Shown: in pieces, positions 4,019 through 37,038 of the stretch
Numbering within the stretch: position 1 is the stretch's first letter
How the letters are laid out: each line of letters begins with the position of its first letter
Source of the DNA: Mesorhizobium sp.
Lineage (GTDB): Bacteria > Pseudomonadota > Alphaproteobacteria > Rhizobiales > Rhizobiaceae
DNA: 40,000 nucleotides
Reading direction: 5' to 3'
Assembly: GCA_004020645.1 (NCBI GenBank)
Contig: SAQL01000025.1
Span: forward strand, 45,274 to 85,273
Position numbers and translations under genes: made by a program
Notes under the pieces: generated by a model
What the model was told of the DNA's origin: nothing
Databases searched by the model: none
Seen by the model: only the letters and a program-made list of their open reading frames with translations

Positions 4019-4310
4019 ACCCGTGAAGGTCCACTATGGAGCCGATTCGGCGAGGTAATTGTGAAATCGTCTCAGGAAGCAGAAATATGGATATCTTCAA
4101 ATTTCGCGGCGGACTCCGCAGGGCACTGCTGGAGCAGGTCGACGAAATCCAGAATGCCAACGGCTGGTACAGATGGGATACGACTAGGCGCGGCAGATTC
4201 TATTGCCTATCGCTGCTGTTGTAGTTGCTTTTTCAAATAATCGTCGCGAGACTGTCGGCTTTTCAGGGCGAGGGGTCCCGCTCTTGGGGGGTGGTAATCT
4301 GTTCAGAGGG

Positions 4311-10820: not shown

Positions 10821-10825
10821 GCACG

Positions 10826-13849: not shown

Positions 13850-14552
13850 GCGTGCGGGCGCGTTGTCCTCCAAGATTGGCAGCTACAATAAGCTCAAGAA
13901 CACGGCTGACGAAGCCGAGCAGTTCCTGACGCGCGCCACCCAGTTTACGACACTTTCGGAGAAAGTGGCCCGTGCTCGCGCGAACCTGGCGAAGCTCGCG
14001 GCGGCGGGCGTCGAAACCGGTTTCGCGGCGAACGACGGTTCGGGTTATGCGGCTAAGGCTCGCACCCTACGCGAAGCCGTGCATGCCAACCCAGCCGCGA
14101 TAAACGACCCACCATTCGACTTGAAGCACGAATTTGCAGACCGAGTGTCAGCTATTGCAGTCGCAGCCGAGAAGGCGTCGCTTGTAGCGTGGCAAACCTA
14201 TGTCGCAAAGCGCGCCGCTTTCGGTGCCGATGATGTGCTGAACGCACTCGGTAAGATCCCACAGTTCCGATTAAGTATAAGTCGCATCAGCCAAATACGA
14301 ACTAATGTCGCCGGGTTCGGTGCGATGCTGCCTGACGATCCCAAGGGAGCTATCTCCAGATTGGACGCGCTGATCGACGAACACGAGGCGGCATGGAAAG
14401 CGCTCGCTGCCGACGATATCCCTTCCAGCGTGGTCGCGTTCATCCGCGCGGCGGCAAGTTCGGAGGCGCTTTTGAGCGCTTTTACGCAAGATGTGCGCAC
14501 ATGGCTCGAGAGTCGCAATCTCCTCGACGCCTTCCGTATCAAATTGCGGTAG
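13833..14552 (+). CDS. dpdI: Hypothetical helical protein in the DpdI position
   Basis: 239 aa, Ala/Lys-rich and helical. It overlaps the dpdH end by 17 nt. The name is by synteny only. Confidence 0.5.
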   Translation: MPMLLERAGALSSKIGSYNKLKNTADEAEQFLTRATQFTTLSEKVARARANLAKLAAAGVETGFAANDGSGYAAKARTLREAVHANPAAINDPPFDLKHEFADRVSAIAVAAEKASLVAWQTYVAKRAAFGADDVLNALGKIPQFRLSISRISQIRTNVAGFGAMLPDDPKGAISRLDALIDEHEAAWKALAADDIPSSVVAFIRAAASSEALLSAFTQDVRTWLESRNLLDAFRIKLR

Positions 14553-14560
14553 CCTCAGCG

Positions 14561-19141: not shown

Positions 19142-19668
19142 TGGCCGCTGATTCCCGAGATTTGCACGGCCCAGCCCAGTCGCGGGCCGTGCGCGACCTG
19201 TTCCAGGGGCTTTTCATCGCCGAATTGATTAATCCGAGCCCCAAACTTTGGCTGTTCTTCGCGTGGATTTCGGATGTCGAGATCATCGACAATTCGGCAC
19301 GCCAGTTCGCAGCACTCGAACCCGATTGGCCTGCGACGCCCATCCAGCTGTCACAGGTGTTGCGCGCATTGTTGTCGCGCGGAGTCCATATCCGGCTGAT
19401 CATTCGTGAAGACGGCCACAACGACTATTTCATTGCCCGACTTCGGACGCTGAAGGCCCGATATGGCGACTTGTTGAAATGGACGATCGAGAAGAGCTTT
19501 CACGCCAAGGGACTGCTCGGCGCCGACTATTTCCTCGCCGGATCTATGAACCTGACCTTGAGCGGGATTTCAGTCAACGACGAACATCTCGTCCTGCGGA
19601 CCGATCCGGCAGTGGTCGCCGAGCAATCGATCGAACTTGAGGAAAAATGGGAGGGCCGCGTCGTATGA
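19141..19668 (+). CDS. dpdK: Phospholipase D-family (HKD) nuclease-like protein, DpdK-like
   Basis: Single HKD motif HAKGLLGADYFLAGSMNLT (HxK-x4-D-x6-GSxN). The ATG shares one base with the dpdJ TGA (TGATG at 19139-19143). Confidence 0.8.
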   Translation: MAADSRDLHGPAQSRAVRDLFQGLFIAELINPSPKLWLFFAWISDVEIIDNSARQFAALEPDWPATPIQLSQVLRALLSRGVHIRLIIREDGHNDYFIARLRTLKARYGDLLKWTIEKSFHAKGLLGADYFLAGSMNLTLSGISVNDEHLVLRTDPAVVAEQSIELEEKWEGRVV

Positions 19669-21974: not shown

Positions 21975-22781
21975 TCATTGGGGTTGGCTGTGGAATTTGT
22001 TGGATTTCTGCGGAGGGTGACTTGCCTTCAGCACGATCGCCGGCACTTCGGCAAAGGACGAAACTGTGAAGTCCGGTTGAACCAGCTGGGGATCCGCCTC
22101 CCATCGCGGCTTGAAACCACCAGGATAGTAGATCGTTATCAACCCAGCCTCCTTAGCCGGACGGATATCCCGCTCGAGTTGGTCGCCGATCATATATCCG
22201 GGGGATGAAACACCCGGCAGCAATTGGACGCGCTTGTAGAGGCCCAAATGCTTGGGCGCCTCGATAATCCGATCGATATAATGGCCGATCCCCTGCGAGC
22301 GTGCTGTCCGCGCTGCCTTTTCCCGGGATCCCTCGGTGACAACAGTAATCAGACAACCAGCCGTATGCAGGGCATGAATACCTTCAGCCACTCCGTCACG
22401 GAGATCAGGCAAACGTTGAACGGCAGCGAGGAACGTTCTTTCGGCGGTTTCTGCTTCCAGGTCCCCAATCACTTGCCGCTCGGTCGCGCTCGTCCACGCC
22501 AATCTGGCCGCCTCCTGAGCGCGGACTCCAGTGAGCGCTAGTGCAATTGCCTTAGCCAAGTGGCGTGGTGGATAACGAAGGCCGGCGTGATGTCGCTCTG
22601 CGAGCATCTGATCCAGAGACCGAACGTACGCAAGCCTATCCTCGGGGATCGCTTCCCTCTTTAGAGCCCTTTCTACCAACCCTAGCAGTTCGAGTTGGGC
22701 AGACGCAAAGACGCGATCTGTATCCCACAATGTGTTGTCGGCATCGGTGAGTACGTTCGTTTTGACAACTGCTCCCCTCAC
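21975..22781 (-). CDS. HAD-superfamily hydrolase/phosphatase
   Basis: Motif I LTDADNTLWDT (DxDxT), motif II ITVVTEGS, motif IV GDQLERDI. The GTG start overlaps the stop of the upstream membrane-protein gene (GTGA at 22778-22781). Confidence 0.75.
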   Translation of the reverse strand: MRGAVVKTNVLTDADNTLWDTDRVFASAQLELLGLVERALKREAIPEDRLAYVRSLDQMLAERHHAGLRYPPRHLAKAIALALTGVRAQEAARLAWTSATERQVIGDLEAETAERTFLAAVQRLPDLRDGVAEGIHALHTAGCLITVVTEGSREKAARTARSQGIGHYIDRIIEAPKHLGLYKRVQLLPGVSSPGYMIGDQLERDIRPAKEAGLITIYYPGGFKPRWEADPQLVQPDFTVSSFAEVPAIVLKASHPPQKSNKFHSQPQ

Positions 22782-23800
22782 TGCGGAGCTACCTTGTCGT
22801 TTTGAATCGGCTTAGTCGCTGAAGGATCCTCGTTCGATCGATTGGTAGAATCCGGCTTTGGCTCGACCGCTTCTGCGCCGGTTCCAGTTGGGTGCACGTT
22901 CTCGACGACCTGGGCACTTTTCTCCATTGGCGTTGGCCCAACAAGGATGTTTACAAGTCCAAGAAGCGCCAACCAGACAAGGAGGCACCGAAGTCCGAAC
23001 GCAAGTGTGTTCTGCGCCGGTTCGAGATATCGTACCTTGTCTGCGACTTTTGCCGCTACCAGATAGCTCTCGCCAAGGTAGTTGCGCAGGTATCGAATAG
23101 AAAGATCTGGACGTAGGTGAACGGAATCTGACGTGGGCGCCGCTGTAACAAACGACGCAGCCCAAGCTGATGGGCGCACAGCAATAATTGCCGGGAAGAA
23201 AAGATGCGACTTTGGCTCGGCCAGTTCGCGTTGGAGATTATTGGGATCGGTTGTCGGAAATTTGAACCGCGTACGTGTGGCATGAAAAATGACCAATGCC
23301 CCACTAACTGCGCTCACCAGGAATATGGCGAAAACGAGATAAGTCAGCCCGATAAGAAATCCCTTGTATGACAAAAGCATGTTCATTGAGGGAAGTGGAT
23401 ATGCTTCATTGAAGCGCGCGAACAATACACCGGAGAGTGCGCTTAAGAACGTGGCGATTGTCAGGAGACGGAACGCTTTTTGATCTTGATATTCGGTAAG
23501 GTCCTTGACCTCGTCGAGTGACTCCCTGCCTCGCTGCAGAGCAGCCTTGAGGATCTCGCTTGGCGGTTGAATTCCCGAGCTACTTTTGTCAATTTCGCTG
23601 CCAGATGTGGTGTCAATGAGTTTTTCCGTTTCAGCTGCTATTTCCATTAGTATCTGCTCACTGGTGAGCGATACAGTACTTCGCGACTCGGTTAAGCGAG
23701 GAAAATGCTCGATGTCTGTCGACCAAAAGGCATTCCAAACGGCTCTCCAAGATGAAAGACTTTCCCCATTCTTGGCCATCTTGATTTGCATCCTCTTCAC
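22778..23800 (-). CDS. Multi-pass membrane protein, Pycsar-effector-like (PycTM/DUF5706-like) candidate
   Basis: At least three hydrophobic helices: FRLLTIATFLSALSGVLFARF, FLIGLTYLVFAIFLVSAVSGALVIF and LAFGLRCLLVWLALLGLVNILVG. YQDQKAFRLL before TM1 and SHLFFPAIIAV after TM2 resemble the DUF5706 pattern as I recall it (faDtKA...; s.iFF..ia). The gene is visibly AT-richer than its neighbours. Confidence 0.45.
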   Translation of the reverse strand: MKRMQIKMAKNGESLSSWRAVWNAFWSTDIEHFPRLTESRSTVSLTSEQILMEIAAETEKLIDTTSGSEIDKSSSGIQPPSEILKAALQRGRESLDEVKDLTEYQDQKAFRLLTIATFLSALSGVLFARFNEAYPLPSMNMLLSYKGFLIGLTYLVFAIFLVSAVSGALVIFHATRTRFKFPTTDPNNLQRELAEPKSHLFFPAIIAVRPSAWAASFVTAAPTSDSVHLRPDLSIRYLRNYLGESYLVAAKVADKVRYLEPAQNTLAFGLRCLLVWLALLGLVNILVGPTPMEKSAQVVENVHPTGTGAEAVEPKPDSTNRSNEDPSATKPIQNDKVAPQ

Positions 23801-23841
23801 GCAGCGGCTTTATGCGGGTACCGATCGCAGGTTTCCAGATT

Positions 23842-24408
23842 TCAAGCCGGCATAAGGCCCAGTCGACGATCTCGCGCGCGCAGCAATGCCAGGAATGGAA
23901 GGGCGGCCAACACCATCCAGGTCTTACCCACGACTTGTCCTGCCAAAAATTCAACGGAACCGAAAGCAAGGCCGAGAAACACGATGCTGTCGATAACAAG
24001 CCCCACCATACTGCTTGCGACGGCGGCACGGATGAATCCGCGACGCTGCAGCGGAGTGTAAACCGCTAAGTCTGCGATTTCCGACAACAGAAAAGCGACA
24101 GTGGAGGCGACGACCAGCGCTGGCGGCGCAAAACTCGCCGACAACAAGGCGCCGATCGCAATTGCGGCAGCCGTCCAACTTAAGCCAAGTCGCCGCTGCA
24201 CAAGGTCGCGCAGCACCAAGGCGAGACCTACCGCCAACACCCCGCTGGGAGCGTCAATTCCGGGCGCCACGGGGATCAGGCATGGACCATTTGGTACACA
24301 GGTTGTCCCAACATTCCCGATGAGCCAGTTCGCAAGCGGGATGCATCCAGCAAAGCACAAAGCGAACACGATTCCTTCCGTCCTACGGAGGCGATCGATC
24401 TCAGCCAT
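23842..24408 (-). CDS. VUT-family / YhhQ-like queuosine-precursor transporter candidate
   Basis: 188-aa polytopic membrane protein. It overlaps the queC stop by 8 nt. Composition and size fit the short COG1738/DUF165 proteins found in que clusters. Confidence 0.55.
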
Positions 24409-25162
24409 TGGACAACTCCTGCGTCAGCGGTAGCGTTGCAGTTCGCTTGGCGAACTGTCGATATCCCTTCGCGCGCAACTCGCATGCCGGGCACACGCCG
24501 CAGCCTCGTCCCCACTCATGGATGTTCCCGACTTCCCCATGGTAGCATGTCAAAGTGCTAGTGCGGATCAAGTTCACCAGGGCCGTCCCACCTAGTTCTT
24601 CGGCAAGGGTCCACGTCTGTGCCTTGTCTATCCACATAAGCGGAGTCTCGAGAACGAAACGACTCTCCATACCTAGGTTGAGGGCGACTTGAAGCGCTTT
24701 CACCGTATCGTCACGGCAGTCCGGATATCCGGAAAAATCGGTTTCGCAAACGCCAGTCACTATGTGCTTGAGACCTCGACGGTAGGCGACAGCAGCAGCA
24801 AATGTGAGGAAGATAATATTCCGCCCTGGCACGAAAGTGTTCGGCAAACCGGATTCTGTAGTCGCGATCTCAACGTCGCGCGTCAATGCCGTCTCGCTGA
24901 TTTCGCCGAGCACAGACAGATCGAGGACGCGGTCCTCGCCGAGTTTGGCGGCCCATTTGGGAAAATTGTGCTCCAAGCCAGCTCGGAATTCGCCCCTCGC
25001 GTCTAGCTCGGCGCGATGCCGCTGCCGATAATCGAATCCGATAGTCTCCACGCGCTCGAATCGATCGAGGGCCCAGGCAAGGCACGTCGCAGAGTCTTGG
25101 CCGCCGGAAAAAAGAACGAGCGCACTATCGGTTGCCTGTACTAGGTGTTGCGGGTCAGCCAT
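24401..25162 (-). CDS. queC: 7-cyano-7-deazaguanine (preQ0) synthase QueC
   Basis: PP-loop [17 protein letters not shown]-terminal Zn Cys cluster CYHGE...[10 protein letters not shown]. Start ATG 25162 overlaps the queD stop (ATGGCTGA). The ORF is also open from ATG 25198. Confidence 0.9.
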
Positions 25163-25505
25163 TGTACTCGGCCCAGCAGTTCGGGGTTTCGTAGACAACT
25201 ACCGCGGTCAGTGGCAAAAGCGGCCTAACCCGGTTCCAGATCCAAACCGCAATGTTCTCGGCCGTCGGATTGTTCAACCCCTCGACTTCGTTAAGGCAAT
25301 GATGGTCGAGTTGGGCGAGCAATGGATTAAACGCCGCCTCCACGTCGAAGAAGTCGACGACGAAGCCGGTATGAGAGTCGACAGGCCCCTCGAGGCGGAG
25401 TTCGATTCGATAGGAATGACCGTGCATACGGTGACAGCGGTGCGTCAACGGAACATGGGGCAACCTGTGCGCGGCCTCGAAGGTGAACGCCTGAGTTATT
25501 TTCAT
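25155..25505 (-). CDS. queD: 6-carboxy-5,6,7,8-tetrahydropterin synthase QueD
   Basis: [40 protein letters not shown] is the typical QueD/PTPS-like His/Cys motif set. ATG 25505 overlaps the queE stop (ATGA). The product is 116 aa. Confidence 0.9.
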
Positions 25506-26137
25506 CTGATTCCAAGTTGCTTGTGGGTTTGAAGGCTGAGTTGCCAACGAGGGTTCGCCAGGCAATAGGCGACTGCGTCCTGCGTATTAGATGCGCGATC
25601 AGGCCCATCCATTGGCTGGAGCAGGAAATGATCGAAGGCCAGCGCTTCAAAGCGCCGCGGTTCTGCGCCCACCTGCGGAAATACCAACTTGAGTTCGTTT
25701 CCGGTTTTAATCGCGATTTCAGTACCTGACTTTGGACTGACGCAAACCCAGTCGATCCCTGGAGGTGGCGTGAGCGTACCATTGGTTTCGACGGCGACCT
25801 CGAACCCTTTGGCATGCAAGGCGTCGATGAGAGGCGGGTCGATTTGGAGCAGCGGTTCGCCGCCTGTTAATACCACGAACCTGCGCTCAGAGAGTGACGG
25901 TGACCATTTCGCCTCAATGGCACTCGCCAGGTCATCGCATGTTGCAAAGCGACCACCGCCGTCGCCATCCGTGCCTACAAAATCCGTGTCGCAGAACTGG
26001 CACACGGCCTTCAGGCGATCGGCTTCCCTGCCGGACCAAAGATTGCACCCGGTGAACCGGCAAAAAACGGCCGCGCGTCCGGCCTGGCGGCCCTCACCTT
26101 GGAGAGTGTAAAACATTTCCTTAACTGCGTAACTCAT
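25502..26137 (-). CDS. queE: 7-carboxy-7-deazaguanine synthase QueE (radical SAM)
   Basis: The N-terminus is MFYTLQGEGRQAGRAAVFCRFTGCNLW. The cluster motif C-x14-C-x2-C (CNLWSGREADRLKAVCQFC) is of the Burkholderia-type QueE kind. Confidence 0.9.
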   Translation of the reverse strand: MSYAVKEMFYTLQGEGRQAGRAAVFCRFTGCNLWSGREADRLKAVCQFCDTDFVGTDGDGGGRFATCDDLASAIEAKWSPSLSERRFVVLTGGEPLLQIDPPLIDALHAKGFEVAVETNGTLTPPPGIDWVCVSPKSGTEIAIKTGNELKLVFPQVGAEPRRFEALAFDHFLLQPMDGPDRASNTQDAVAYCLANPRWQLSLQTHKQLGIR

Positions 26138-26143
26138 AGCTTT

Positions 26144-27232
26144 TCACGCTGCCCGTGCGGATTCGGCGAGGCGCCGCTTGAGGACCTGGACTAGGTGAAG
26201 TGATAGTTGGCGGACATCGGACGGAACGTTCTGGAGCCCATTCCAACGTCGGCGCTCAGCGCCGAACTCCCACTCGCCCTCGCTCCAAGCGGTCTTTCCC
26301 TGCAGTAGTCGCAAGCCACTCGCGAATTCGTCGCGTGTAGAAGCGCCTGTAACGCTGTTGAGAAAATCCATGACATAACCGAGGGCGATGATGCCCGTGC
26401 CATGGATCAACCGAGACGTTTTGGGCGTCTTACCGGACCAATCGTCTGCAAAGACGTGTTGGACTGCATGGTAGAACTCGCTCATCATTGTGACGCCCTG
26501 ATCAAGCAAAAGCTTGTCTTCGCCGGCGTAAAGGCGCAGAGCCCCGTCACTCAGCGAGTTCATGATAACCCGCTGCAGCACAGTGTCCCGGATGACCCCC
26601 TTTGGGTTGGTTTGCTGCTTGATCAAACCCCTTAGGGACGATCCCTTGCGATAGTTGAGCGCCTCTGTAGCCAGTGCCGCTTGTGATCGGCTTGACATGC
26701 GGTGCGGCAGATCTCCCACCTTTGGGAGCAGTTCGTACACTAGGGCCTTTGGCAACGGGCGCGTGTTATTCACAAGGATGAACTGTTTTTGCAATTCCTC
26801 CTCTGTCTCACAGAGGAAACCCGACACGAGCACTTCGAAGTCGCGGCCTCGCAGTTCCGAAAGCGCCGTAAAACGCTGTTGTCCATCAACGATCCAACCG
26901 GGCGGGCCCTTGGACGTATCTATGACCAGTTGGCAGAGGCGACTTTCCGGATTCGTCACTGGCTCTAACCAAGCTTGCCCCATGAAGGCGACCACGATGG
27001 CATTGGGCAAGATTGAGTTCGGCTTTTCGAGATAATCACGGATTTCGCGAATGTGGCCCGCGATCTGCGGCCGCTGGAAGCCCTGGAGCGCCCCCGCGTC
27101 ATCGCGACCCGCCCGTTCGATACGAGCAATGCGTGCGACTTCTGCAGCATTTGCAATGAAGGTGAAAACCGTCAGTTTCTCGCTTTGAACCGGTGCCAGC
27201 GCATCAAACCGAAGAAAATGTTGATTGTTCAT
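26144..27232 (-). CDS. DGQHR-domain (DndB/ParB-like) protein, DpdB/DpdC-type paralog 1
   Basis: Motifs GFQRPQIAGHIREIRDYL, ILPNAIVVAF, WIVDGQQRFTAL and QFILVNNTRPLP. ATGA overlap with the dpdA stop. Colinear with the 379-aa paralog. Confidence 0.75.
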   Translation of the reverse strand: MNNQHFLRFDALAPVQSEKLTVFTFIANAAEVARIARIERAGRDDAGALQGFQRPQIAGHIREIRDYLEKPNSILPNAIVVAFMGQAWLEPVTNPESRLCQLVIDTSKGPPGWIVDGQQRFTALSELRGRDFEVLVSGFLCETEEELQKQFILVNNTRPLPKALVYELLPKVGDLPHRMSSRSQAALATEALNYRKGSSLRGLIKQQTNPKGVIRDTVLQRVIMNSLSDGALRLYAGEDKLLLDQGVTMMSEFYHAVQHVFADDWSGKTPKTSRLIHGTGIIALGYVMDFLNSVTGASTRDEFASGLRLLQGKTAWSEGEWEFGAERRRWNGLQNVPSDVRQLSLHLVQVLKRRLAESARAA

Positions 27233-28518
27233 ATGCTCTCCTGCCGGAATTCGCTCAAGTGGGTGTGAAAGACGTGTAGGTTGTGGATTCCGCGTCGCTT
27301 GTTACGATTTGAGGTGCGGAAGATCACGGCCTCCACACCGCTCTCCCGACAAACTCGGCAGCTGCACCGCTCCCAGGGCCGATCGCCAAGGGTGTGGGCA
27401 TAGACCTTGCGCTGTCGGGTTGCGGCGTCCGCACGACGGCTCGGTGATGCCTCGTCGTGCCAGTTCAGGGCGGCCCAATAGTCCATCACGGCATCAAGGC
27501 TTTGGTCCAGGGTCGCGCCGCCGTCGGCATAAGCACGCACGCCGCGAAGCGCGGCATCTTCAAGACGCCTCGCGTCCTCCTGGTTGAGGCTGCCTTCCAG
27601 CGCCTTATGCTTGAGCTTGTTGTTCTGGGTAGCCTGCGGAATACGAATTGCGGTGTAGTATGAGAGATCGCCGTCGGCCGTCCGCACCCAGTAATTCTTC
27701 CGGGCGTCCTTGAAGGCACGCAAAAGCGGAGACGTCGTGTCGAAACTGGTGACGCCGTACTGTTCCAGCGCGGCCAGTTCCTCGATTTTGCCAAAGCCCA
27801 GGAGATGAAGTCGGATCCTGTCGGGGAGAGTCTCACGCAACGCTTGTAAGACACGGCGAATCTGATCGATCCTCAACGGCACAGTGCCGCCGATGGCTAA
27901 ATAGTCATATCCCATACTGGCCAGGTTGCGGGCAGCCTGCGCCATACTCTCAGCCGACCATCCCTGTATTACGCCCATTGGCGTGAAGCCTGGGCCTACG
28001 CCTGCGGCGGATTTGTAGAACTCGGTCGCATTCTGAAGAGTGATTTCGTAGCGACGACGCACATCCTCTGGCACGTCATCCATGGTCCGCGTCAAACCAA
28101 TGTCGTCAAAGTCAAAGATAAGGTGATCGGGCGAACAGCCGTGCGTGAAGCCGCCGTCAGCATAGAATTCCGCTGTGTCGTCGGCGCTATACGGCGGCTC
28201 CGGTAGATTCCGATAGGTGAAGGCGCCGCAGTCGCCCATCATCAGGCTTCCCGGAAATCGATCGAGCGGATAGCGCAGAAAGCGTCGGGCGCCCTCGCGA
28301 CGAAAGCGCATCGACTGTGCTTCCGAATATTTTCCTGGCTGCCGCGCATCGCCCACGATGGTGCGGGAAACCAAGATTCCGTCATACGGCGCCTGCTCTA
28401 GGAACTCGTGAGGGTACTGATCATCGCGGTGAACTGATCGGCCGGCGCCGTTGCGATCCGCGACGAAGTCATACTCAGGGTCGATCGTATCGACGCTGTC
28501 TGCGAACACGAACCGCAT
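27229..28518 (-). CDS. dpdA: DNA-guanine transglycosylase DpdA (TGT-like, tgtA5 family)
   Basis: 429 aa. The core is TGT TIM-barrel-like (MMGDCGAF, YLAIGGTVPL, LHLLGFG). The C-terminal signature is CSCRVC...IFRTSNRNKRRGIHNLHVF. It is embedded between DGQQR proteins and queCDE. Confidence 0.85.
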   Translation of the reverse strand: MRFVFADSVDTIDPEYDFVADRNGAGRSVHRDDQYPHEFLEQAPYDGILVSRTIVGDARQPGKYSEAQSMRFRREGARRFLRYPLDRFPGSLMMGDCGAFTYRNLPEPPYSADDTAEFYADGGFTHGCSPDHLIFDFDDIGLTRTMDDVPEDVRRRYEITLQNATEFYKSAAGVGPGFTPMGVIQGWSAESMAQAARNLASMGYDYLAIGGTVPLRIDQIRRVLQALRETLPDRIRLHLLGFGKIEELAALEQYGVTSFDTTSPLLRAFKDARKNYWVRTADGDLSYYTAIRIPQATQNNKLKHKALEGSLNQEDARRLEDAALRGVRAYADGGATLDQSLDAVMDYWAALNWHDEASPSRRADAATRQRKVYAHTLGDRPWERCSCRVCRESGVEAVIFRTSNRNKRRGIHNLHVFHTHLSEFRQESI

Positions 28519-29657
28519 CAGGCGACCTTTGCGAATGCGTGCATGTGATCGAGGCGCGCTAGGTGGCCAGACAACAGTTTGATGTCGCGTCCAACGTTCT
28601 GAATCTCATTCCAATCGCGCTGCAACTCCGCCCATCTGCCGTTGGTCCAGCGACAATATGGAGCGATCCGCGTCAGGGACTCCGTCGCGTGGAGTAGCAG
28701 GTCCGTCCCAGGCGCCGCTCGCGACATGATACGGTCCATCAAGAGGCTCATCGCCTCGACGCCCGCTGAGTGCATAAGCCGACTTTCGGTAGGTGGGCGA
28801 CCCCATGCCTCAGGAAAGACGCGACGGACAGCGGTCCAGTAAGCGACAAGTGCACGGTACATCGCATCCACGTCCGCGGGACACTCTGCTGTCGCCTTAT
28901 ACGGGGCGAGTGAGCCAAGGGCGCTATTGATGCTGTTGCGGATCGCCTTGATCAATGCCGAGTCAGTGACAACGGCGGTCGTGGAATCTTCAGAAAGCCG
29001 TTTGATAAGGCCTTGGAACGGAGAATCAGAAGAGGTTTGGAGCAGATTGACGAGTTCGCTTGGGATTTTCCGAGACGACAAGTCACGCGGAAAGGCTGTG
29101 TCTACTTCTGGAAGTAGTTCGTTGATCAGCCGAGGGTCGAGCGGTTTCGCCTTGTTGACCAAGATGAACTGTTCGCGATGGACGGACAATTCCTCTGACA
29201 CAAAGGCGACGACGGGAACGGGAAAGCTCTTGTTCTGAGCTTGAGACAGGGCAATCGAACGCTGTTGGCCATCGACAATCCAAGCCGCCTTTGGGCCGTC
29301 GTTTGGAAGTGGGATCCGCAATGTTCCCGCCTCACACGACCTTACGTCGCCGCCAGGCTTTTCGCCCCTTGTCTGGGTGAAACGTGCGCGCGGCGAGAGC
29401 GCGAGAATGATGGCGTTCGGGAAGAGCACGGGCCCCTGATCAAGGAACTCCGTGATCGCTTGGACGTGGCTCTTAATGCCCTTGCGCTGAAATCCGTGCA
29501 GAGACCCTTCGCCGTCCCGGTGAACGCGGCTGATCTCGGCAAACTTGAGAAGGTCGGCACCAGCGACAAAGAATGCATAGACAGCTTTATCAGCCTGTTC
29601 GGTGCGGACCGCGCGAACAGCGAGCGTTGCCTCCTTGGCCTTTCGCGGACGCGTCAT
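28518..29657 (-). CDS. DGQHR-domain (DndB/ParB-like) protein, DpdB/DpdC-type paralog 2
   Basis: Motifs GFQRKGIKSHVQAITEFL, LFPNAIILAL, WIVDGQQRSIAL and QFILVNKAKPL. Its stop shares one base with the dpdA ATG (TGATG). Its ATG overlaps the upstream stop (ATGA at 29654-29657). Confidence 0.75.
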   Translation of the reverse strand: MTRPRKAKEATLAVRAVRTEQADKAVYAFFVAGADLLKFAEISRVHRDGEGSLHGFQRKGIKSHVQAITEFLDQGPVLFPNAIILALSPRARFTQTRGEKPGGDVRSCEAGTLRIPLPNDGPKAAWIVDGQQRSIALSQAQNKSFPVPVVAFVSEELSVHREQFILVNKAKPLDPRLINELLPEVDTAFPRDLSSRKIPSELVNLLQTSSDSPFQGLIKRLSEDSTTAVVTDSALIKAIRNSINSALGSLAPYKATAECPADVDAMYRALVAYWTAVRRVFPEAWGRPPTESRLMHSAGVEAMSLLMDRIMSRAAPGTDLLLHATESLTRIAPYCRWTNGRWAELQRDWNEIQNVGRDIKLLSGHLARLDHMHAFAKVA

Positions 29658-30619
29658 GCGGCTCCCCTTTGCTCGATAGCGGCTCGGTAGAGACGACTAA
29701 ACCGCGATTGCTCGCATGCAACACCCTCTTCATCTCGAAGCGCACGGAGGATTCGTGCAATGCCTGATTGCGACCGAAGGCGCGCCAAAATTAGCTGAAC
29801 GATCTCCGCATCGTTGCGGCGTAGGCGGCGAGGGCGGTCAGGGGCCGCCACTCCTCCAATGGCAGCCTCTACGGCTGCATAATCGGCGTCTCGGTCATAA
29901 GCGTCGCGTTTGGTCGCCACCAACCGAACAAAGTGGAGCATGGCCCGCTGAGAAAAGTCGGCCCGGGTACCTGGAAGGATCGCATCCAACCGATCGTCGT
30001 AGGGCAGGACCGATGGCGCGAGTGTAACTGGTAAGGCCGATGCAAGAGATGCGCCGAAGATTCGCAGCCGCGCCAAGGCTTGAGGTCCCAGTTCACTCAA
30101 GCTCTTACCTACCATCTCGGCATATGGACGGGTAAGCGCGATGAGCACTCGCCCAGAACCTTGGCCGAATGCGTCGCCCCATTGATCCGAATACGCACCT
30201 GACATAAGGCTGGCAAACCAGGCGCCGGGATCGAACTCATCCGTTACCCGTGCCGCGACGGACTCAGCGTGCCCCCCGGACACAGTGAGCCCATAGAGTG
30301 GGACTTGCCGGTTTATATCCACCAGGCCCAACCCGGCAGAAAGGACGTAAAGCTTGGCCTCGGCGATATTTGCGGCCTGGGTCGCGAGTCCAAACCCTCG
30401 ACCAGCGTAGAGTGCGCCGGCGGAGGCCGCGAGCGGTAGCGCCCGCATCTTCGTGTTCCAAGCAGTCTGAATCACCTCCTGTGGACCCAGGCGCAAAGAA
30501 ACTGCTGTTGCCGCGAACGGCGCTCGCGCCATTTTTCGATGGGTGCAGATAGTAATCAGAGCTGCAATCGGCTTCGGGGTTGAGTGTTCGAGGGTTCGCG
30601 CAACTGCTGCCGGAGTCAT
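29654..30619 (-). CDS. Hypothetical protein, first gene of the dpdA/que operon; DUF6884/YaaA-like N-terminal pattern plus C-terminal HTH-like tail
   Basis: ALITICTHRK...ALYAGRGF...LYVLSAGLGLV...VPLYGLT resembles the DUF6884 pattern as I recall it (C..K...Y.G..F...ILSA..G...P.Y..T). The C-terminus, EIVQLILARLRSQSGIARILRALRDEEGVACEQSRFSRLY, looks like a resolvase-type HTH. Confidence 0.5.
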   Translation of the reverse strand: MTPAAVARTLEHSTPKPIAALITICTHRKMARAPFAATAVSLRLGPQEVIQTAWNTKMRALPLAASAGALYAGRGFGLATQAANIAEAKLYVLSAGLGLVDINRQVPLYGLTVSGGHAESVAARVTDEFDPGAWFASLMSGAYSDQWGDAFGQGSGRVLIALTRPYAEMVGKSLSELGPQALARLRIFGASLASALPVTLAPSVLPYDDRLDAILPGTRADFSQRAMLHFVRLVATKRDAYDRDADYAAVEAAIGGVAAPDRPRRLRRNDAEIVQLILARLRSQSGIARILRALRDEEGVACEQSRFSRLYRAAIEQRGAA

Positions 30620-31282: not shown

Positions 31283-31804
31283 ATGATGACCTTGCAGCGC
31301 AGATATCCGGTAGCCCTTGCGATCGCGGTGTTCCTCATTTGCGGTCCAGTGTTGGCCCAATCAGCTATGGAACATCACGTCTGGCAGGATAAGCGCAAAT
31401 TCGACCCGTATAGCCGCACCGCAAAGTCGATCACCGGTGCAATACGGCTCTCCGGAAATCCGGGTTTCGCCAGCCGCGGTAGCAAGTTGACGATCACATT
31501 CGAGAACGGCAAAAATGTCGAGCTGACGTCGGTGGGCGCATCATGGCGTCCGTGGGAGGAGGCGGACGACAGGATGGCGACCGCGGAAGTCTTCAAAATG
31601 TCACGGGATCCGGGCGCTCTCAAAAACGGCAACACGCTTTGCGGCGTTCCGAAATTTGATCCGGCCCGATACATTGTGTTTCTCGAAAAGTCGTCGTCCG
31701 GAAATTCTCCGCTGCTTGGGATGGCGGTCTTTGGATCAAAGAAAGCTCCGCACGACGTCAATAGCCAAGGCCTCTGCGGCACTTTCAACTATTCTACCGA
31801 CTGA
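31283..31804 (+). CDS. Secreted/periplasmic hypothetical protein
   Basis: From ATG 31283 the N-terminus MMTLQRRYPVALAIAVFLICGPVLAQS is a signal peptide with an AxA-like cleavage site. The ORF track start at 31166 is probably too far upstream. Confidence 0.55.
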   Translation: MMTLQRRYPVALAIAVFLICGPVLAQSAMEHHVWQDKRKFDPYSRTAKSITGAIRLSGNPGFASRGSKLTITFENGKNVELTSVGASWRPWEEADDRMATAEVFKMSRDPGALKNGNTLCGVPKFDPARYIVFLEKSSSGNSPLLGMAVFGSKKAPHDVNSQGLCGTFNYSTD

Positions 31805-31893: not shown

Positions 31894-32706
31894 ATGGCAG
31901 TACCAATTTTTTTTGATCGTTATCGCGACGTCATCAATCGGCGTGGTGAAGCGGCAGCTCGAACACCAGAGACGCTCCTCGATGTCGATGGACGAGACGA
32001 ACTCTTTTATATTCCGTTCGAACACGTGAATTCGGCCGCTCGCCTGGTGGTCGTCGGGATCACTCCCGGCCCAGACCAGATCGCGCTCGCATACCGGACA
32101 GTCAGCAGTAAGATCAAGGTTGGGCTGACTAACGAGAAAATTCTCGCCGAAGCGAAGAAACATGGAGCATTCGGCGGTCCGACGATGCGACCCAAACTGC
32201 TGCAAATGATGCGACATTTCGGCTTCTCCGAACTCCTGGGAATTGAAAGAGAAGAGGATCTATGGGCGCATCGAAGTGATCTACTGCATGCAACCTCCAT
32301 AGTCCCCCATGCGGCATTCCGGAGGGGAAAGCCCTTTGCTGGCAGTTTTGACGACGTTCTGCGAACTCCGGTCTTCCGGGAGAGTTTCGAAAGAGATTTT
32401 GTGCCGTCGCTTTCGATGCTGAACCCTGATGCGCTTTATGTTGGCCTTGGTCCTACGCCTCTCGCCGCGCTTGATCGGTGCGCGGAGCAAGGATTGATCC
32501 GCCCCGATCAGGTGTTGGGCGCTTTTGCGCACTCGTCAACGAACGGGGGCAGCCAGGTCGACGTCTATCTTGGTCTCAAATCGATCGACGCTCTAAACGA
32601 AAAAGACCCCGTCCGGTATCGGAGCGATTTCTTGTTGCCTGCGTACGAACGCATGAAGGCGGTGACAGATCGCCTTCATGCCGCAATGAAGGCTGCGGCC
32701 GAATAG
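31894..32706 (+). CDS. Hypothetical protein with a uracil-DNA-glycosylase-superfamily-like motif layout
   Basis: The order of elements matches the UDG fold. A beta1 plus motif-A-like stretch is RLVVVGITPGPDQ. A mid strand is ATSIVPHAAF. Then comes ALYVGLGPTPLAAL, and a C-terminal motif-B-like stretch GAFAHSSTNGG (compare HPS). By-eye inference only. Confidence 0.4.
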   Translation: MAVPIFFDRYRDVINRRGEAAARTPETLLDVDGRDELFYIPFEHVNSAARLVVVGITPGPDQIALAYRTVSSKIKVGLTNEKILAEAKKHGAFGGPTMRPKLLQMMRHFGFSELLGIEREEDLWAHRSDLLHATSIVPHAAFRRGKPFAGSFDDVLRTPVFRESFERDFVPSLSMLNPDALYVGLGPTPLAALDRCAEQGLIRPDQVLGAFAHSSTNGGSQVDVYLGLKSIDALNEKDPVRYRSDFLLPAYERMKAVTDRLHAAMKAAAE

Positions 32707-32819
32707 GGCGACTGGGAAACAATGGGTTGGAGTGCATATCAGGCTTATATTATGCTGCCGCTTGCGCAGCATCAGGGAGGAAAGATGAGTCTTAGTGTGC
32801 CGCAGAACGGGGGTTCTGA

Positions 32820-33719
32820 TTGGAACCCTATCGGATAGATTTACCGCGTACTTACGCGTTTTGGGATGACGTTGACGGCAAGAAGGAGGACTGGGGTCCC
32901 CGCCTTTGGTCATTGATAAGCTCCGCAATCGACTTTGAGCCGCCCGTCGTTTTGGTCGATCGGGAGACTTATGGGTTCGTCAGGGACAGGATGATCAGCT
33001 ACATCCACGCCCGCTTGGTCACCCGAGCACGCCAGATTGATCTGGAGATGGCCACCTTCCCGGAGGATGCGAGGCAGGATCGACTGGCAGACACGGTCGA
33101 GGAAGTCCTCTCGCTCGGCGAGGAACAGCGGCAGGAGATTGCCTGGCTACTGTCGAGGATCAGCGCTCGGATTCGGAGAAAGGGGGCAGTCCTGACAACC
33201 ACGCAGCGGCGAGAGGTCGAGGACTTCGCCTCTGGCAACGGCCACCGATGCTATATCTGCGGTCGTGGTCTGCATTACGCGGATCGCCCGCACCCCGACG
33301 CCGAGATGAAGAACGCGAATTATCGTTCGTTCGAATTGGACCACATGTTCCCCCAGAAGCGGGGTGGCAGCAGGTCGCGGGCGAACCTCGCGGGGTGTTG
33401 TGAGTCCTGCAACAAGTTCAAGGATGTGAAGCTATCATTCGCTGATGAGGCGGTTGAAGCCTTCATCACGGCGTCGATGGATAGCGTGAAGGTGGCAAGA
33501 GCGTTCCACGCCAGAGCGCGTTTCCTAGTCCTGTGGCGACAGAAAGGCGAGTGTGCCCGATGCTCGATAAAATTCTATGATGCGCCCGACGAGCGTCTTT
33601 TCTTGTTCAGGAAGAACCAGGGCGACGTCTACCATTTCCTGAACGTCGAGATAGGCTGCGGCGCTTGCGGAGATCTGCACGCGGGAGCGGAGGAAGAGGG
33701 AATCAAGATACGTGATTAG
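32820..33719 (+). CDS. HNH endonuclease-domain protein
   Basis: CYICGRGL...FELDHMFPQKRGGSRSRANLAGCCESCNKFK is a CxxC...DH..P...GG...NL...C..CN..K HNH core. A second Cys pair is CARCS...CGACG. The start is TTG, directly after an in-frame stop. A 17-codon ORF with a strong SD sits just upstream in another frame (32785-32838). Confidence 0.7.
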   Translation: MEPYRIDLPRTYAFWDDVDGKKEDWGPRLWSLISSAIDFEPPVVLVDRETYGFVRDRMISYIHARLVTRARQIDLEMATFPEDARQDRLADTVEEVLSLGEEQRQEIAWLLSRISARIRRKGAVLTTTQRREVEDFASGNGHRCYICGRGLHYADRPHPDAEMKNANYRSFELDHMFPQKRGGSRSRANLAGCCESCNKFKDVKLSFADEAVEAFITASMDSVKVARAFHARARFLVLWRQKGECARCSIKFYDAPDERLFLFRKNQGDVYHFLNVEIGCGACGDLHAGAEEEGIKIRD

Positions 33720-34893
33720 CTATACTGGTATTCTCGTCGAGCAGCGCCCCGGTGCGCAGGTCAAGTTCCTCGTCTTCGTGGCAGATGCCAAGGAGGTGGT
33801 CGGTTGGGCAGAAGCCGACAACATCAAGCTTGACCGGGGCAACGTTCAGCGCGAGCTGGTGGAATCGCGCTGGAGGCAGATCCGCAAATTCTTCAACGCG
33901 TCGCCAAACAACGTGATCCCTACCAGCGTGACGATCGCGCTGGATGAATCCATCCCCCAAGCCGAATCGGTGGAGGACCTCGCAAACGCAGCCGGCTTTG
34001 TGCTCGAAGACACAGCGAACGGCATGACCAAGATCACCTTCGATCCAGAGCGGATCAAGGGGGCTGCGTTCCAGCATCGCCTCAAGGGCATGTCCATGCT
34101 CGACTATGATGTGAAAGTCCCAATCTGCCTTTTCTTGTCCTTGCCGAAGGTGGAGCGCGCCTTTCAGTTCGTGACTATCAACAACAAGTCACACAAGGTT
34201 CCGACTGGCAACCTGAAGGCGCTGCTGGCGAATTTCGAGCAGATCGAAGCGAATCTGCGGAGCCGGCTCACACAGGCATCCATTACCGCTCCGCATTATT
34301 CGACAGCAGTTGACGTGCTCAATGAAGATCCGGAGAGCCCATTCCACAAGCTGGTCGACTGGGTGAACAACCGCTTCGAAGACGCCGCCCTCCTCGTTCC
34401 GCCGACCGCGCTCGAGAACTCGCTGCGCGCCATCGTGCGTGCCTTTCCGGAAACCCGGGAGGACGAGTCCGATGCGCTCGCCGTACTCTATGCTATCTGG
34501 CGGGCGGTTTTCGGTCAGTACGGTATCACTGCCGCAACAGCTGCCGGCTTCCCAAACCTGATGCTCAAAGCGACCATCCAGACGATCTCCGAGATGGTCG
34601 TTGAAAAGCTGAAGTCGGATTATGACCCAGCATTCTCGAACGACCCCGTGATGGCAGACAATGGCGAGAAGGCGGGCGTCACTGCGGCTAACCTCGTGCA
34701 AGGCATACCGGCTGCCTTCTGGGAGCGGCCCTGGACAATGAAGAGCCTGGATACCTCTGCTGGCCGGGCGCTGATCCAGGAGGGCATTCGTGAACTCAAG
34801 CGAATTATCCATCAGAGCAATGGCGGAGATCTACCGGATCATTGGGAGCAGCGCCTGAGATTGTACCAATCCGGCACCGATTTGGAGGAATGA
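33712..34893 (+). CDS. Divergent DndB/DGQHR-family protein with a degenerate signature (AFQHR)
   Basis: GTG 33712 overlaps the HNH stop by 8 nt. VQRELVESRWRQIRKFFNASPNNVIPTSVTIAL and FQFVTINNKSHKVP are colinear with GFQRP...ILPNAIVVAF and QFILVNNTRPLP of the dpd paralogs. DGQQR is replaced by AAFQHR. Confidence 0.55.
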   Translation: MISYTGILVEQRPGAQVKFLVFVADAKEVVGWAEADNIKLDRGNVQRELVESRWRQIRKFFNASPNNVIPTSVTIALDESIPQAESVEDLANAAGFVLEDTANGMTKITFDPERIKGAAFQHRLKGMSMLDYDVKVPICLFLSLPKVERAFQFVTINNKSHKVPTGNLKALLANFEQIEANLRSRLTQASITAPHYSTAVDVLNEDPESPFHKLVDWVNNRFEDAALLVPPTALENSLRAIVRAFPETREDESDALAVLYAIWRAVFGQYGITAATAAGFPNLMLKATIQTISEMVVEKLKSDYDPAFSNDPVMADNGEKAGVTAANLVQGIPAAFWERPWTMKSLDTSAGRALIQEGIRELKRIIHQSNGGDLPDHWEQRLRLYQSGTDLEE

Positions 34894-35203: not shown

Positions 35204-36317
35204 TCATGGTGCCCCGCCATTGGTAGTCGCGACGTTGAGATATTGCTCGAGCGCCTCGATGCTCGCCATGACTTCGGCGAAAGCTGGCGGCGTTCCGAAA
35301 ATCATCGCGGACATCCGCCGGTAGTCCGCTGCAAGCTTGGTTCGCATGTCTTCCGTCGGAATGAGGCGATAGCGGCCCGGTATCGCGCGATCGTAACGAT
35401 GATCGGGCGCGCGAAACATCAACTCCTTGTGCTGTCGGCACGCCTCGGCAAGTTCGCGCATGGATGCCGTTGCGACACCGTAGTCGGGGTGCGTCCAGAT
35501 CTGATGGACGTCGTAGTAGTGACGCGAGTACCGATTGAGATCGGGCACGGGCCGTTCCGGATTGGCATCGTGACGCCGCTTCTCCGTCATCTCGGTCATC
35601 GCATGCAAGATCAGCACCTTTTCCCAGAACGTGCGCTCAGGCCTCACCGTCGTCACGTTCTGAACGGTGAGGCTCGGCCCTTCCGGCATCTCGGCAGCGA
35701 TATAGGGCACGATCTCGCGCGGCTCGGCGGGTTCGGGATCGGGTCGCGCGCCGCCTTCGATGCGAACGGCCGCCTGCACATAGCTGCCTTCGGCCTCGAA
35801 GACGCTCTTTTAGCCAAGCACCAGGATGTCGAGCGCTTCTTTGTTGCGGTAAAGATCAAAGCCGAAGCCCAGCGAGAAATGACCAGGACGCTCGGCCGCC
35901 TGTTCCACGACGGCGAGCTCCTTCATCAGCAGTTCTCTGAGCGGTCCGGAGATATATTGCCGCGCGGCCTCGTCGACTTTCTCGGCGAGCGCGCGTTGCT
36001 GGCGATTGACGGAGGGCAGGGCGGCGATGTCGGCTTCAAGCGGGACGTTCAGATCGGCTTTGTAAATGCCGATGTCGATATCCTCTGAAAATCGGCGGAC
36101 CAGCCCATACGCCTTGCTCAGGCTGGTGCCGCCCTTGAAATACAGACCAACCGGATCGTTCGGCCGGCGGTTGAACAGAAAGTCGAGCACCCAGCAGACG
36201 TAAAGGTCCTTTTCGATATTTGCCGCCTTGGTGCCCAAGTGGGCGGCGACTGTCTCGAAGAGCGTACGGCGTTCCGTCGATGCTCGAGTGCAGGATCTCA
36301 ATGAACGTCTTCTGCAT
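35204..36317 (-). pseudogene. AbiEii/AbiGii-family nucleotidyltransferase toxin, disrupted by a frameshift and an in-frame TAA
   Basis: ATG 36317 overlaps the antitoxin end by 20 nt and reads MQKTFIEILHSSID. Family-like sequence then continues in another frame: ERRTLFETVAAHLGTKAANIEKDLYVCWVLDFLF...YFKGGTSLSKAYGLVRRFSEDIDI. The apparent lesion is an extra G at about 36274-36275. An in-frame TAA at 35810-35812 separates ...DILVLG from KSVFEAEGSYVQAAVRIE... in the same frame. Confidence 0.75.
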
Positions 36318-37038
36318 GATCGCCCTTCGCGCGTTCTGGCTCCGGCGCGCCTTCGGTTTGATCCTCGGCGATTCTGCGCGTGATTGTCTCGACCAGTGGA
36401 TACATCCACGCGGGGACCGCATGAATGTTGTCGCGGAGGTCCTGTGCGATCTTGTCCCGATCGGGATTGCGTGACAGATCCCGGACGATCCCGTTGATGG
36501 CCGCGTCGAAGCTCGATCGTTCGTCCCGAAACCATGTGAGCGCTTGGACCACGCGCATGGCCGGCCGGCCAGCCCAAAACGCCGTCTTGGCCGCGATGCG
36601 CTTGAAATCAAGCTTGTAGATGACAGGCCGGACCGCCTTCGGATCGCCGGCGCTTGCCTCGATCTCGATTGTTCGCGGATAGGTGTCGGCATAGATCGTT
36701 GAGCGCGCCGGGACGGCTGTCGTCAGGCCGAGGTCGTTCGCGGCGGTCATTCCGTCGACGAGGACGCGCAGCTTGTCGCGCCGGGCAATGGCGTCGACGA
36801 ACGAGGACCGGGGCGGAAACACCATCTTGCCGGTGAGCTTGCTGACGCTGGGCTTGTCATAGAGTCCGCGATGGGGCCGGCGAATGTCGCCCCGCAGGGT
36901 GAGCCGTTGCAGCGCCTTCTCAACGGCATTCGGTGTGCCGATGTCGAGAAAGTCGGCGCGCGACCATACGCCGGCCGGCGCCGCCTGGATGATCCGGTCG
37001 TGAATGCGATCGAGCGTGTCGGACGTCGGGTCTGGCAT
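36298..37038 (-). CDS. AbiEi-family type IV TA antitoxin / transcriptional regulator
   Basis: The N-terminal wHTH pattern is NAVEKALQRLTLRGDIRRPHRGLYDKP. It is 246 aa and lies immediately upstream of, and overlapping, the AbiEii-like gene. Confidence 0.75.
   Translation of the reverse strand: MPDPTSDTLDRIHDRIIQAAPAGVWSRADFLDIGTPNAVEKALQRLTLRGDIRRPHRGLYDKPSVSKLTGKMVFPPRSSFVDAIARRDKLRVLVDGMTAANDLGLTTAVPARSTIYADTYPRTIEIEASAGDPKAVRPVIYKLDFKRIAAKTAFWAGRPAMRVVQALTWFRDERSSFDAAINGIVRDLSRNPDRDKIAQDLRDNIHAVPAWMYPLVETITRRIAEDQTEGAPEPERAKGDHAEDVH

Follow-up and report, generated by a model that had tools for sequence, protein, structure and literature searches.

A 40,000-nucleotide stretch of a Mesorhizobium sp. 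genome (contig SAQL01000025.1, positions 45,274 to 85,273; hereafter the window) holds a complete Dpd island, as judged by open reading frame (ORF) calls and PADLOC/NCBIfam profile searches, plus a trio of genes, here called A, B, and C, at 31894-34893. We propose that this interval comprises two independent units: a pair, B-C, that would act as a modification-coupled restriction effector and a two-protein analog of DndI/SspE, and a separate gene, A, encoding a predicted member of the uracil-DNA glycosylase (UDG) superfamily. We put the probability of this reading at about one half. The original prediction for this interval had instead described a three-gene modification-sensing defense module or an auxiliary arm of Dpd; its observations are partly confirmed and its interpretation is partly supported by the results below. 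The three ORFs, including the 8-nt overlap between B and C (GTGATTAG), lie where it had placed them:

31894-32706, plus strand: gene A, 270 aa, ATG start; predicted stand-alone UDG-superfamily protein outside the B-C cassette (ORF call, AlphaFold2 model with Foldseek search, transitive Pfam matches)
32820-33719, plus strand: gene B, 299 aa, TTG start; HNH endonuclease made up of a helical N-terminal domain, an HNH core, and a putative C-terminal zinc ribbon
33712-34893, plus strand: gene C, 393 aa, GTG start; DGQHR-domain protein (ParB/Srx fold, DndB/DpdB-like) overlapping B

To survey the C family, we scanned one genome per species, which gave 50 loci, and identified B-like ORFs in them with a hidden Markov model built from B homologs. 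A B-like HNH ORF ends at the start of the C-like gene (within ~100 nt) in 43 of the 50 species-level loci, and the identities of B and C to their window counterparts co-vary (r = 0.96, 10 loci). In our first look-ups, three C homologs led to five loci (Bradyrhizobium, Stenotrophomonas, and metagenomes); an HNH gene overlaps the start of C in all five, and all five pairs adjoin dpdC-dpdB-dpdA-dpdB2-queE/D/C. Within 10 kb, we found DpdA in 15/50 loci and DndC or DndD in 23/50, so that 38 of the 50 species have Dpd or Dnd genes this close. The Dpd-linked loci occur here and in other Proteobacteria, and the Dnd-linked loci in cyanobacteria, Chloroflexota, and others, where the neighbors recognized by NCBIfam are DndA, B, C, D, and E, dnd_assoc_4, dnd_restrict_1, and a dnd-related methyltransferase. 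Judged by these gene neighborhoods, B-C is a predicted two-gene operon, conserved across species, and a portable satellite of Dpd and Dnd DNA-modification islands.

The pair occupies different places in different dpd islands. In the window it lies outside dpdC, in Ensifer between dpdE and queC, and on an Agrobacterium vitis plasmid (CP146243.1; L069 8939-13013) between dpdD and the que/dpdA block, beside an Mrr_cat gene. No DpdD-K homologs were found within the flanks examined in about half of the Dpd-linked loci. The earlier suggestion of an auxiliary Dpd arm thus holds for B-C, given the dpdC-B-A genes beside all five first loci, the 15 DpdA-linked species, and the A. vitis arrangement. Moreover, the attachment of the pair to Dnd islands, which is even more frequent (23/50), argues for a portable effector rather than a Dpd-specific part.

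The pair does not correspond to an annotated system in the resources we searched. B and C match no Dpd equivalog, in a window that has DpdA, two DpdB-type proteins, DpdC-J, and a phospholipase D (PLD)-like DpdK candidate. PADLOC has no system for the HNH-DGQHR pair and returned only weak HNH-motif matches to PDC-M01B, PtuB, and restriction endonucleases. The openly searchable literature, which leaves out subscription-only papers, does not describe HNH-DGQHR pairs from dpd or dnd islands. Some dpd islands without a restriction operon are known to contain HNH endonucleases (PMC12235509), and ParB-fold/HNH fusions exist (PMC12704722).

We also observed variations on the two-gene layout. In ~15 Dnd-linked loci, dnd_assoc_4 (TIGR04062) lies directly upstream of the HNH gene (e.g., L048 8410-9132), giving a three-gene operon; dnd_assoc_4 is unrelated to A, which has no NCBIfam match. 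Two HNH-DGQHR pairs stand in tandem beside dpd in Stenotrophomonas maltophilia LR134324.1 (L009 2605-4820 and 6091-8227), and a Leptolyngbya Dnd island carries two pairs ~9 kb apart (L036 383-2475 and 9130-11152).

C is the third DGQHR paralog of the window, besides the DpdB-type genes at 28518-29657 and 26144-27232. It matches TIGR03187 (DGQHR) at 71.3 bits (cut-off, 58.85) and aligns colinearly with positions 12-268 of the 370-position DpdB profile (PADLOC DpdB, 1e-12). It is neither a DpdB equivalog (NF041060, 50.9 bits versus a cut-off of 300), nor DndB (PF14072, TIGR03233 family, 12.3 versus 29.1 bits), nor a member of TIGR04172 (36.3 versus 450 bits), and searches of the PDB with the single sequence or its profile gave no match. 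In a neighbor-joining tree, the HNH-partnered DGQHR proteins form their own clade apart from DpdB, the second DpdB, and DndB, within which Dpd-linked and Dnd-linked members are interleaved. C therefore shares with DpdB and DndB a domain family, ~260 colinear residues (NF041060, 51 bits), and the same islands, but differs from them in scoring far below the equivalog cut-offs (51 versus 300; 12 versus 29), in its separate clade, and in having an HNH partner in place of DpdA or DndCDE; the window copy additionally lacks the D and G of the motif. The known Dnd satellites (TIGR04172 DGQHR_dnd_1, TIGR04062 dnd_assoc_4, and TIGR04095), defined by partial phylogenetic profiling, offer a second comparison: there too, DGQHR proteins strictly accompany a modification system (PMC3226654), and both dnd_assoc_4 and dnd_restrict_1 adjoin Dnd-linked HNH-DGQHR pairs. 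However, C and its Dnd-linked relatives score 36-39 bits against the 450 of TIGR04172, and the published description of these satellites includes neither an HNH partner nor a Dpd link (PMC3226654). We considered C as an SspE-type nuclease and rejected this assignment, as only 4 of the 50 family members contain EHxxP, none of them in the window clade.

The sequence AFQHR in the window copy of C had been described as a degenerate form of a DGQQR signature. The DndB-like assignment stands, but the motif of this family, like that of DndB, is DGQHR, whereas DpdB has DGQQR; AFQHR results from a deletion:

34069-34074, plus strand: deletion junction in C, between F120 (34069-34071) and Q121 (34072-34074), placed by alignment and sister strains

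In a protein alignment, 15 of 15 C homologs read GAAFIIDGQHRLKG (GAAFIIDGQHR) where the window reads GAAF----QHRLKG, and DGQHR is kept in 48 of the 49 other C-family ORFs from the 50 species, the sole exception being a truncated ORF. In two sister assemblies (L063 and L064; 99.78% identical), C differs from the window by a single event, an extra ATCATCGACGGG after window position 34071, and the same 12 nt, encoding IIDG, are present in Mesorhizobium sp. ISC15 (L066). The intact C allele of the sister strain, available in assemblies GCA_004021415.1 and SRR7077503, encodes 397 aa. The window is 100% identical to contig SAPI01000026.1 of GCA_004020055.1 (L065). AFQHR is thus a strain-specific, 12-nt in-frame deletion of IIDG from FIIDGQHR, with loss of the D and G of the motif; by inspection, the junction shows no microhomology. 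In DndI and SspE, the DGQ(Q/H)R motif is needed for nucleoside triphosphate (NTP) hydrolysis and defense and corresponds to the ParB nucleotide-binding box (PMC11662687, PMC10164549). Because IIDG is lost, C in this strain is probably unable to bind or hydrolyze NTP, so that the window protein would be NTPase-dead, its nucleotide switch abolished, and the cassette crippled here. The Dpd modification genes beside the mutated C are intact: DpdB is identical to that of the sister strain, and DpdC differs by I315M only.

B is an HNH endonuclease, as the original prediction had it, with matches to Pfam HNH PF01844 (24.2 bits; cut-off, 21.4) and PF14279 (24.6 bits) and with its catalytic residues intact:

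33249-33413, plus strand: HNH catalytic core of B, C144-x2-C147, H175, N189, C194-x2-C197, and N198; invariant columns, all intact in the window
33552-33668, plus strand: putative zinc ribbon of B, C245-x2-C248 ... C280-x2-C283; four invariant Cys

The B profile matches, in the PDB, only the HNH motifs of Cas9-like and IscB-like chains. Its TTG start is backed by homologs that open with MEP... at the same position in a full-length alignment, and a 75%-identical relative starts with the same TTG. An AlphaFold2 model of B from a 12-sequence alignment reached a predicted local distance difference test (pLDDT) score of 57.7, which was too poor for a fold search. The TTG start of B is overlapped, in a different reading frame, by a 17-codon ORF at 32786-32839 (MSLSVPQNGGSDWNPIG) that has a strong Shine-Dalgarno sequence, GGAGGA; this ORF could serve as a leader for translational coupling or be there by chance.

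Inactivation of the pair is not confined to the window. ISC15 shares A-B-C-abiE-xth-ligD with the window at 99.2% identity up to a sharp boundary:

31847/31848, no strand: synteny breakpoint with ISC15, 46 nt before the ATG of A, placed by alignment

To the left of this breakpoint, ISC15 (L066 1-5954) has unrelated genes (HTH_19, DUF982) where the window has its ~28-kb dpd island, and no dpd island was found in the 6 kb upstream of A in ISC15. In its pair, 1 nt is deleted at the end of B and 2 nt at each of two sites in C. In A. vitis, an insertion sequence (IS) element (DDE_Tnp_1) splits C after about residue 39 and leaves B intact. In L018, B and the first 56 residues of C are missing; both L020 and L022 are frameshifted, and L019 has C but no B. 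Inactivation this frequent is typical of costly defense effectors. Moreover, the finding of an intact B beside a broken C argues that B alone is harmless, which makes C more likely to be an activating or targeting subunit than an antidote. The natural C knockouts (the 12-nt deletion, the ISC15 frameshifts, and the A. vitis IS insertion) constitute ready-made allele pairs.

Gene A does not share the distribution of B-C. It was found near none of the 50 C-family loci, and neither B nor C stands next to an A homolog in any of five other genomes; indeed, the A homologs in these five genomes have no HNH or DGQHR neighbors at all. In Sinorhizobium fredii the homolog stands alone in a defense island, in a Rhodobacter capsulatus prophage it lies between tail and head genes on the opposite strand, in Methylorubrum it adjoins a Dnd/Ssp-like cluster, in another Mesorhizobium it is Tn7-like cargo, and in the fifth genome it is located beside umuC. 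A scan of viral contigs gave only two loci, which indicates that A is not mainly a phage gene. The A-B-C order is confined to this Mesorhizobium lineage, where it is kept in all four loci compared, including ISC15, whose A is 100% identical to the window copy while B and C are frameshifted. The guanine-plus-cytosine (GC) content of the A region is 0.54-0.55 against ~0.60, which suggests separate acquisition. We conclude from gene context and composition that A is, in all likelihood, a separately acquired and separately mobile gene that is functionally unconnected to B-C.

We then asked what kind of protein A encodes. A itself matches no family in Pfam (E ≤ 0.1), NCBIfam, or PADLOC, and PDB searches with its single sequence and with its profile both gave noise only; the UDG link therefore came from a fold search and from transitive Pfam matches. 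An AlphaFold2 model built with 46 homologs (pLDDT, 95.3; predicted template-modeling [TM] score, 0.92) has the alpha/beta fold with a four-stranded parallel sheet that defines the UDG superfamily. When this model was compared with the PDB by Foldseek, the 13 best matches were all SMUG1 (Geobacter, Xenopus, human) or UdgX, with a best E value of 3e-3, a probability of 0.99, and TM scores of 0.36-0.44, so the likeness is remote. The best named viral matches in BFVD are likewise UDG-like. A profile search against 1.84 billion representative sequences places A in a family of 1471 clusters (at 50% identity). Among 85 distant members, found by the A profile at E ≤ 1e-39 and 24-34% identical to A, 56 match PF03167 (UDG), the best at 4.7e-9; the distant member P0282 scores 25.1 bits against a gathering threshold of 24.3.

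The conserved loops of A point the same way, and the motifs that had been quoted as UDG-like fall on invariant or near-invariant columns of the family:

32056-32073, plus strand: A motif G55-I-T-P-G-P60, after strand 51-55; invariant or near-invariant columns
32530-32553, plus strand: A motif H213-S-S-T-N-G-G-S220, after strand 207-211; conserved columns

UDG motif A has the form G-x-x-P-G after strand 1, and motif B has the form H/N-P-S after strand 4. In A, according to the alignment and the AlphaFold2 secondary structure, the loops come after four parallel strands in the UDG order. Loops 2 and 3 are T134-S-x-x-P-H after strand 131-135 and L185-G-P-T-P after strand 181-185, and loop 4 in its family form is H213-(P/S)-S after strand 207-211, with PHPSGAN as the consensus of the wider family. 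The invariant or near-invariant columns are G55, I56, T57, P58, G59, T134, S135, P138, L185, G186, H213, S215, and G219; among the 85 distant members, H213 is invariant and P214 and S215 are near-invariant. We take GITPGP to be UDG motif A (GMNPGP in SMUG1, GINPG in MUG) with Thr in place of the catalytic Asn, and the H213 motif is presumably motif B (HPSPxx). The Asp/Asn found in motif A of UDG families 1-3 is replaced in A by Thr57, which is kept in at least 90% of members. As UDG families 4 and 5 also lack Asp/Asn at this position, Thr57 does not exclude activity. By fold model and family-wide matches, A is a predicted member of a large UDG-superfamily branch without a Pfam family of its own. 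Proteins of 380-440 aa, longer than A, make up about half of the A family (e.g., P0055, P0032, P0098, and P0024); their C-terminal extensions of ~120-170 aa are of at least two kinds and match no Pfam family; the distant homolog P0312 has an N-terminal AIG2/GGACT domain.

The closest functional parallels for A are Brig1 and Brig2, which are defense DNA glycosylases (PMC11078745; bioRxiv 10.1101/2025.10.29.685425). A resembles them and SMUG1 (UDG family 3) in its modeled UDG alpha/beta fold and its GITPGP and H(P/S)S loops. To Brig1/Brig2 homologs it is further alike by context only, as a single gene in defense islands, in Tn7-like transposon cargo, and as a moron of a prophage. It differs from SMUG1 and the Brig proteins in having no detectable sequence similarity to any PDB chain and in the Thr at the position of the catalytic Asn/Asp, and its nearest fold neighbor is SMUG1, whereas that of Brig1 is family 4. 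By analogy, A would most likely be a DNA glycosylase or base-flipping protein for non-canonical bases, as Brig1/Brig2 are, with a role in defense the most plausible. The A branch (~1,500 clusters at 50% identity, with conserved GITPG) would then be a candidate for inclusion in the growing class of defense glycosylases.

To develop a mechanistic picture of B-C, we turned to effectors that combine similar parts. DndI of the IscS-DndBCDE-DndI system joins a DGQQR ATPase to an HNH nickase; its ATPase activity is stimulated by DNA carrying the phosphorothioate (PT) modification, which also frees the enzyme from self DNA. DndI nicks unmodified DNA and is toxic without PT, and the R87A substitution abolishes both ATPase and defense (PMC11662687). 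[quoted passage not shown] B-C shares with DndI/SspE a ParB/Srx-fold DGQ(Q/H)R NTPase module and an HNH-type nuclease, as well as a location beside modification genes as an optional restriction arm independent of the DndFGH or DpdD-K machinery; like them (PMC11662687, PMC13251355), it may be prone to cause harm without modification. Based on these parallels, we hypothesize that C binds DNA and that its DGQHR nucleotide pocket serves as a switch responding to the host modification, so that C would recruit or license B to nick DNA without the mark. B would act in trans as the nickase, of classical HNH type and with a zinc ribbon. Genomes that keep an intact B beside a destroyed C suggest that B depends on C for its activity. 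Together, the two proteins would form a compact restriction effector that supplements DpdD-K or DndFGH or takes their place.

Several points weigh against this reading. Unlike DndI/SspE, B-C consists of two polypeptides, nuclease then NTPase, and many of its members are linked to 7-deazaguanine instead of PT. Neither B nor C has a DUF262 or DUF1524 match, so the DUF262 plus DUF1524 architecture within one protein is absent: C falls in the DGQHR/DndB/DpdB branch (TIGR03187) instead of DUF262, and B is an HNH protein of the classical zinc-binding kind (PF01844/PF14279), with a zinc ribbon, instead of a DUF1524 nuclease. The comparison with DndI/SspE is therefore one of analogy, not orthology. 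Because the model of B is poor, its N-terminal domain gives no clue to specificity. Twelve of the 50 C-family loci have no modification gene within 10 kb, although most of these are short contigs or have matches to DpdJ, DndB, DndE, or dnd_restrict_1. The frameshifts of L020, L022, and ISC15, which come from metagenome-assembled genomes or long-read assemblies, could be sequencing errors, but 2-nt deletions and an IS insertion are not typical of such errors. ISC15, where decay occurs without adjacent dpd, is a single case whose dpd status was judged from 6 kb upstream. For A, the fold-search figures are modest (E of 3e-3 and TM of 0.36-0.44), the protein itself has no Pfam UDG match, and Thr occupies the usual catalytic Asn/Asp position.

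The rival explanations differ from ours in how they group the three genes or in the role they assign to the pair. A single modification-sensing defense module that combines a glycosylase fold, a nuclease, and a DndB-type sensor, as first proposed, would account for the tight arrangement of A, B, and C, which lie on one strand, 113 nt apart or overlapping, with no plus-strand terminator predicted between them and with the same order in all four loci of this Mesorhizobium lineage, including ISC15. Dnd-linked relatives also have a third gene upstream, dnd_assoc_4, but it is unrelated to A. The co-occurrence survey (A at 0/50 C-family loci; B or C near A in 0/5 other genomes) largely refutes this module, and the full conservation of A in ISC15 while B and C decay, together with the lower GC of the A region, leaves it highly improbable. 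The pair might alternatively be a Type IV modification-dependent enzyme that attacks foreign modified DNA and lies near Dpd and Dnd genes through the general clustering of defense systems. A ParB-like NTPase plus an HNH nuclease is indeed the architecture of GmrSD/BrxU (PMC4619093, PMC3632139), in which a ParB-like DGQQR NTPase is likewise combined with a His-Me finger nuclease and GmrS and GmrD are also separate genes, and the islands that hold the pair also contain Mrr_cat, AbiE, and integrases. We consider this reading unlikely: the neighbors of the pair are, in at least 38 of the 50 species, modification genes of Dpd or Dnd specifically instead of random defense genes, the pair is embedded between dpd operons in Ensifer and A. 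vitis, and C is paralogous to the DpdB/DndB of the same islands and not to DUF262. B-C also belongs to sequence families other than those of GmrSD/BrxU, and GmrSD is directed at foreign modified DNA and has no tie to a host modification operon.

The homology of C to DpdB, an ATPase required for preQ0 insertion (PMC10164549), and to the regulator DndB (PMC5699537) raises a different possibility, that the pair works on the modification or regulatory side, with C as an extra DpdB/DndB-like loader or repressor and B nicking or processing DNA for base or sulfur exchange. Extra dpdB copies are in fact common in dpd islands (n = 801; PMC12235509). Nevertheless, DpdA, DpdB, and DpdC alone reconstituted Dpd modification (PMC10164549), most dpd and dnd islands lack the pair, and the pair has been repeatedly inactivated while the modification genes stayed intact, as in the window; a dedicated HNH nuclease is, moreover, typical of effectors. 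We regard a modification-side role as doubtful. Overlapping genes on mobile islands could also indicate an addiction or toxin-antitoxin-like pair, with an HNH toxin and a DGQHR antidote, that stabilizes islands, and COG1479/ParB-nuclease fusions have been proposed as programmed-cell-death modules (PMC3632139). However, the window, A. vitis (IS insertion), and L020 (frameshift) each have an intact B with a destroyed or mutated C, a combination that would be lethal if C were the antidote, and L019 has C without B. We give this explanation very little credence.

We advance a broader possibility only tentatively: the HNH-DGQHR pair may be a plug-in effector for two unrelated marks, a PT backbone and a 7-deazaguanine base, that has switched between them more than once. 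The simplest Dpd-type restriction-modification system would then consist of dpdABC and two small genes, and the pair would provide the first tractable nuclease for self/non-self discrimination based on 7-deazaguanine, with modification status read either directly or via the resident DpdB/DndB paralog. The DpdD-K machinery is large, and a two-gene cassette would give a small, testable entry point to how Dpd systems restrict unmodified DNA. The parallel attachment to Dnd suggests that restriction effectors combining a ParB-like switch with HNH can be exchanged between modification chemistries, which bears on how systems of the restriction-modification kind are assembled.

The remaining features of the window place the trio in its island:

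4203-21806, plus strand: dpdE, F, G, H, I, and J, a PLD-like DpdK candidate, and dpdD (PADLOC/NCBIfam matches)
21975-30619, minus strand: HAD hydrolase, YhhQ-like transporter, queC, queE, second dpdB paralog, dpdA, dpdB, and dpdC
26144-30619, minus strand: Dpd modification arm (dpdC, dpdB, dpdA, and second dpdB; NCBIfam and PADLOC)
26144-27232, minus strand: second dpdB paralog (NCBIfam DpdB, 383 bits)
27229-28518, minus strand: dpdA (NCBIfam DpdA, 540 bits)
28518-29657, minus strand: dpdB (NCBIfam DpdB, 451 bits)
29654-30619, minus strand: dpdC (PADLOC DpdC, 2e-73)

The trio had been described as co-oriented with the dpd island. Because the adjacent dpdC-B-A and dpdB2 genes are on the minus strand, A-B-C is instead divergent from them, and its orientation matches only the distant dpdE-J plus dpdD block. 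The two DpdB-type genes that flank dpdA both score above the DpdB equivalog cut-off and fall in separate clades of the tree, and the dpdB-dpdA-dpdB2 arrangement is found again in most related islands. A promoter and terminator scan of 30.6-35.2 kb gave chance-level output only.

On the 3' side of the trio lies an AbiEii/AbiEi pair, followed by xth and ligD. The AbiEii toxin gene is broken into two minus-strand ORFs in the window (35204-35779 and 35810-36577), next to a DUF6088/AbiEi-like gene (36298-37038). The sister strains L063 and L064 have one C fewer at 36274 and a T>G change at 35810, giving an intact 370-aa AbiEii; the split is thus a second strain-specific lesion of a defense gene, besides the 12-nt deletion in C. 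Between dpdC and A, a small ORF at 31283-31804 has a signal-peptide-like N terminus (MMTLQRRYPVALAIAVFLICGPVLAQS...) and no family match; the sister assemblies have it annotated as a gene of 173 aa. A 340-aa ORF without an NCBIfam match lies within the dpd/que block (22778-23800, minus strand), between the HAD hydrolase and YhhQ-like transporter genes, and a similar ~304-aa ORF occupies the same place in the A. vitis island. Finally, an SctD-like gene of type III secretion is present with its 3' part at positions 13-654, and the dpd island thus borders a type III secretion region.

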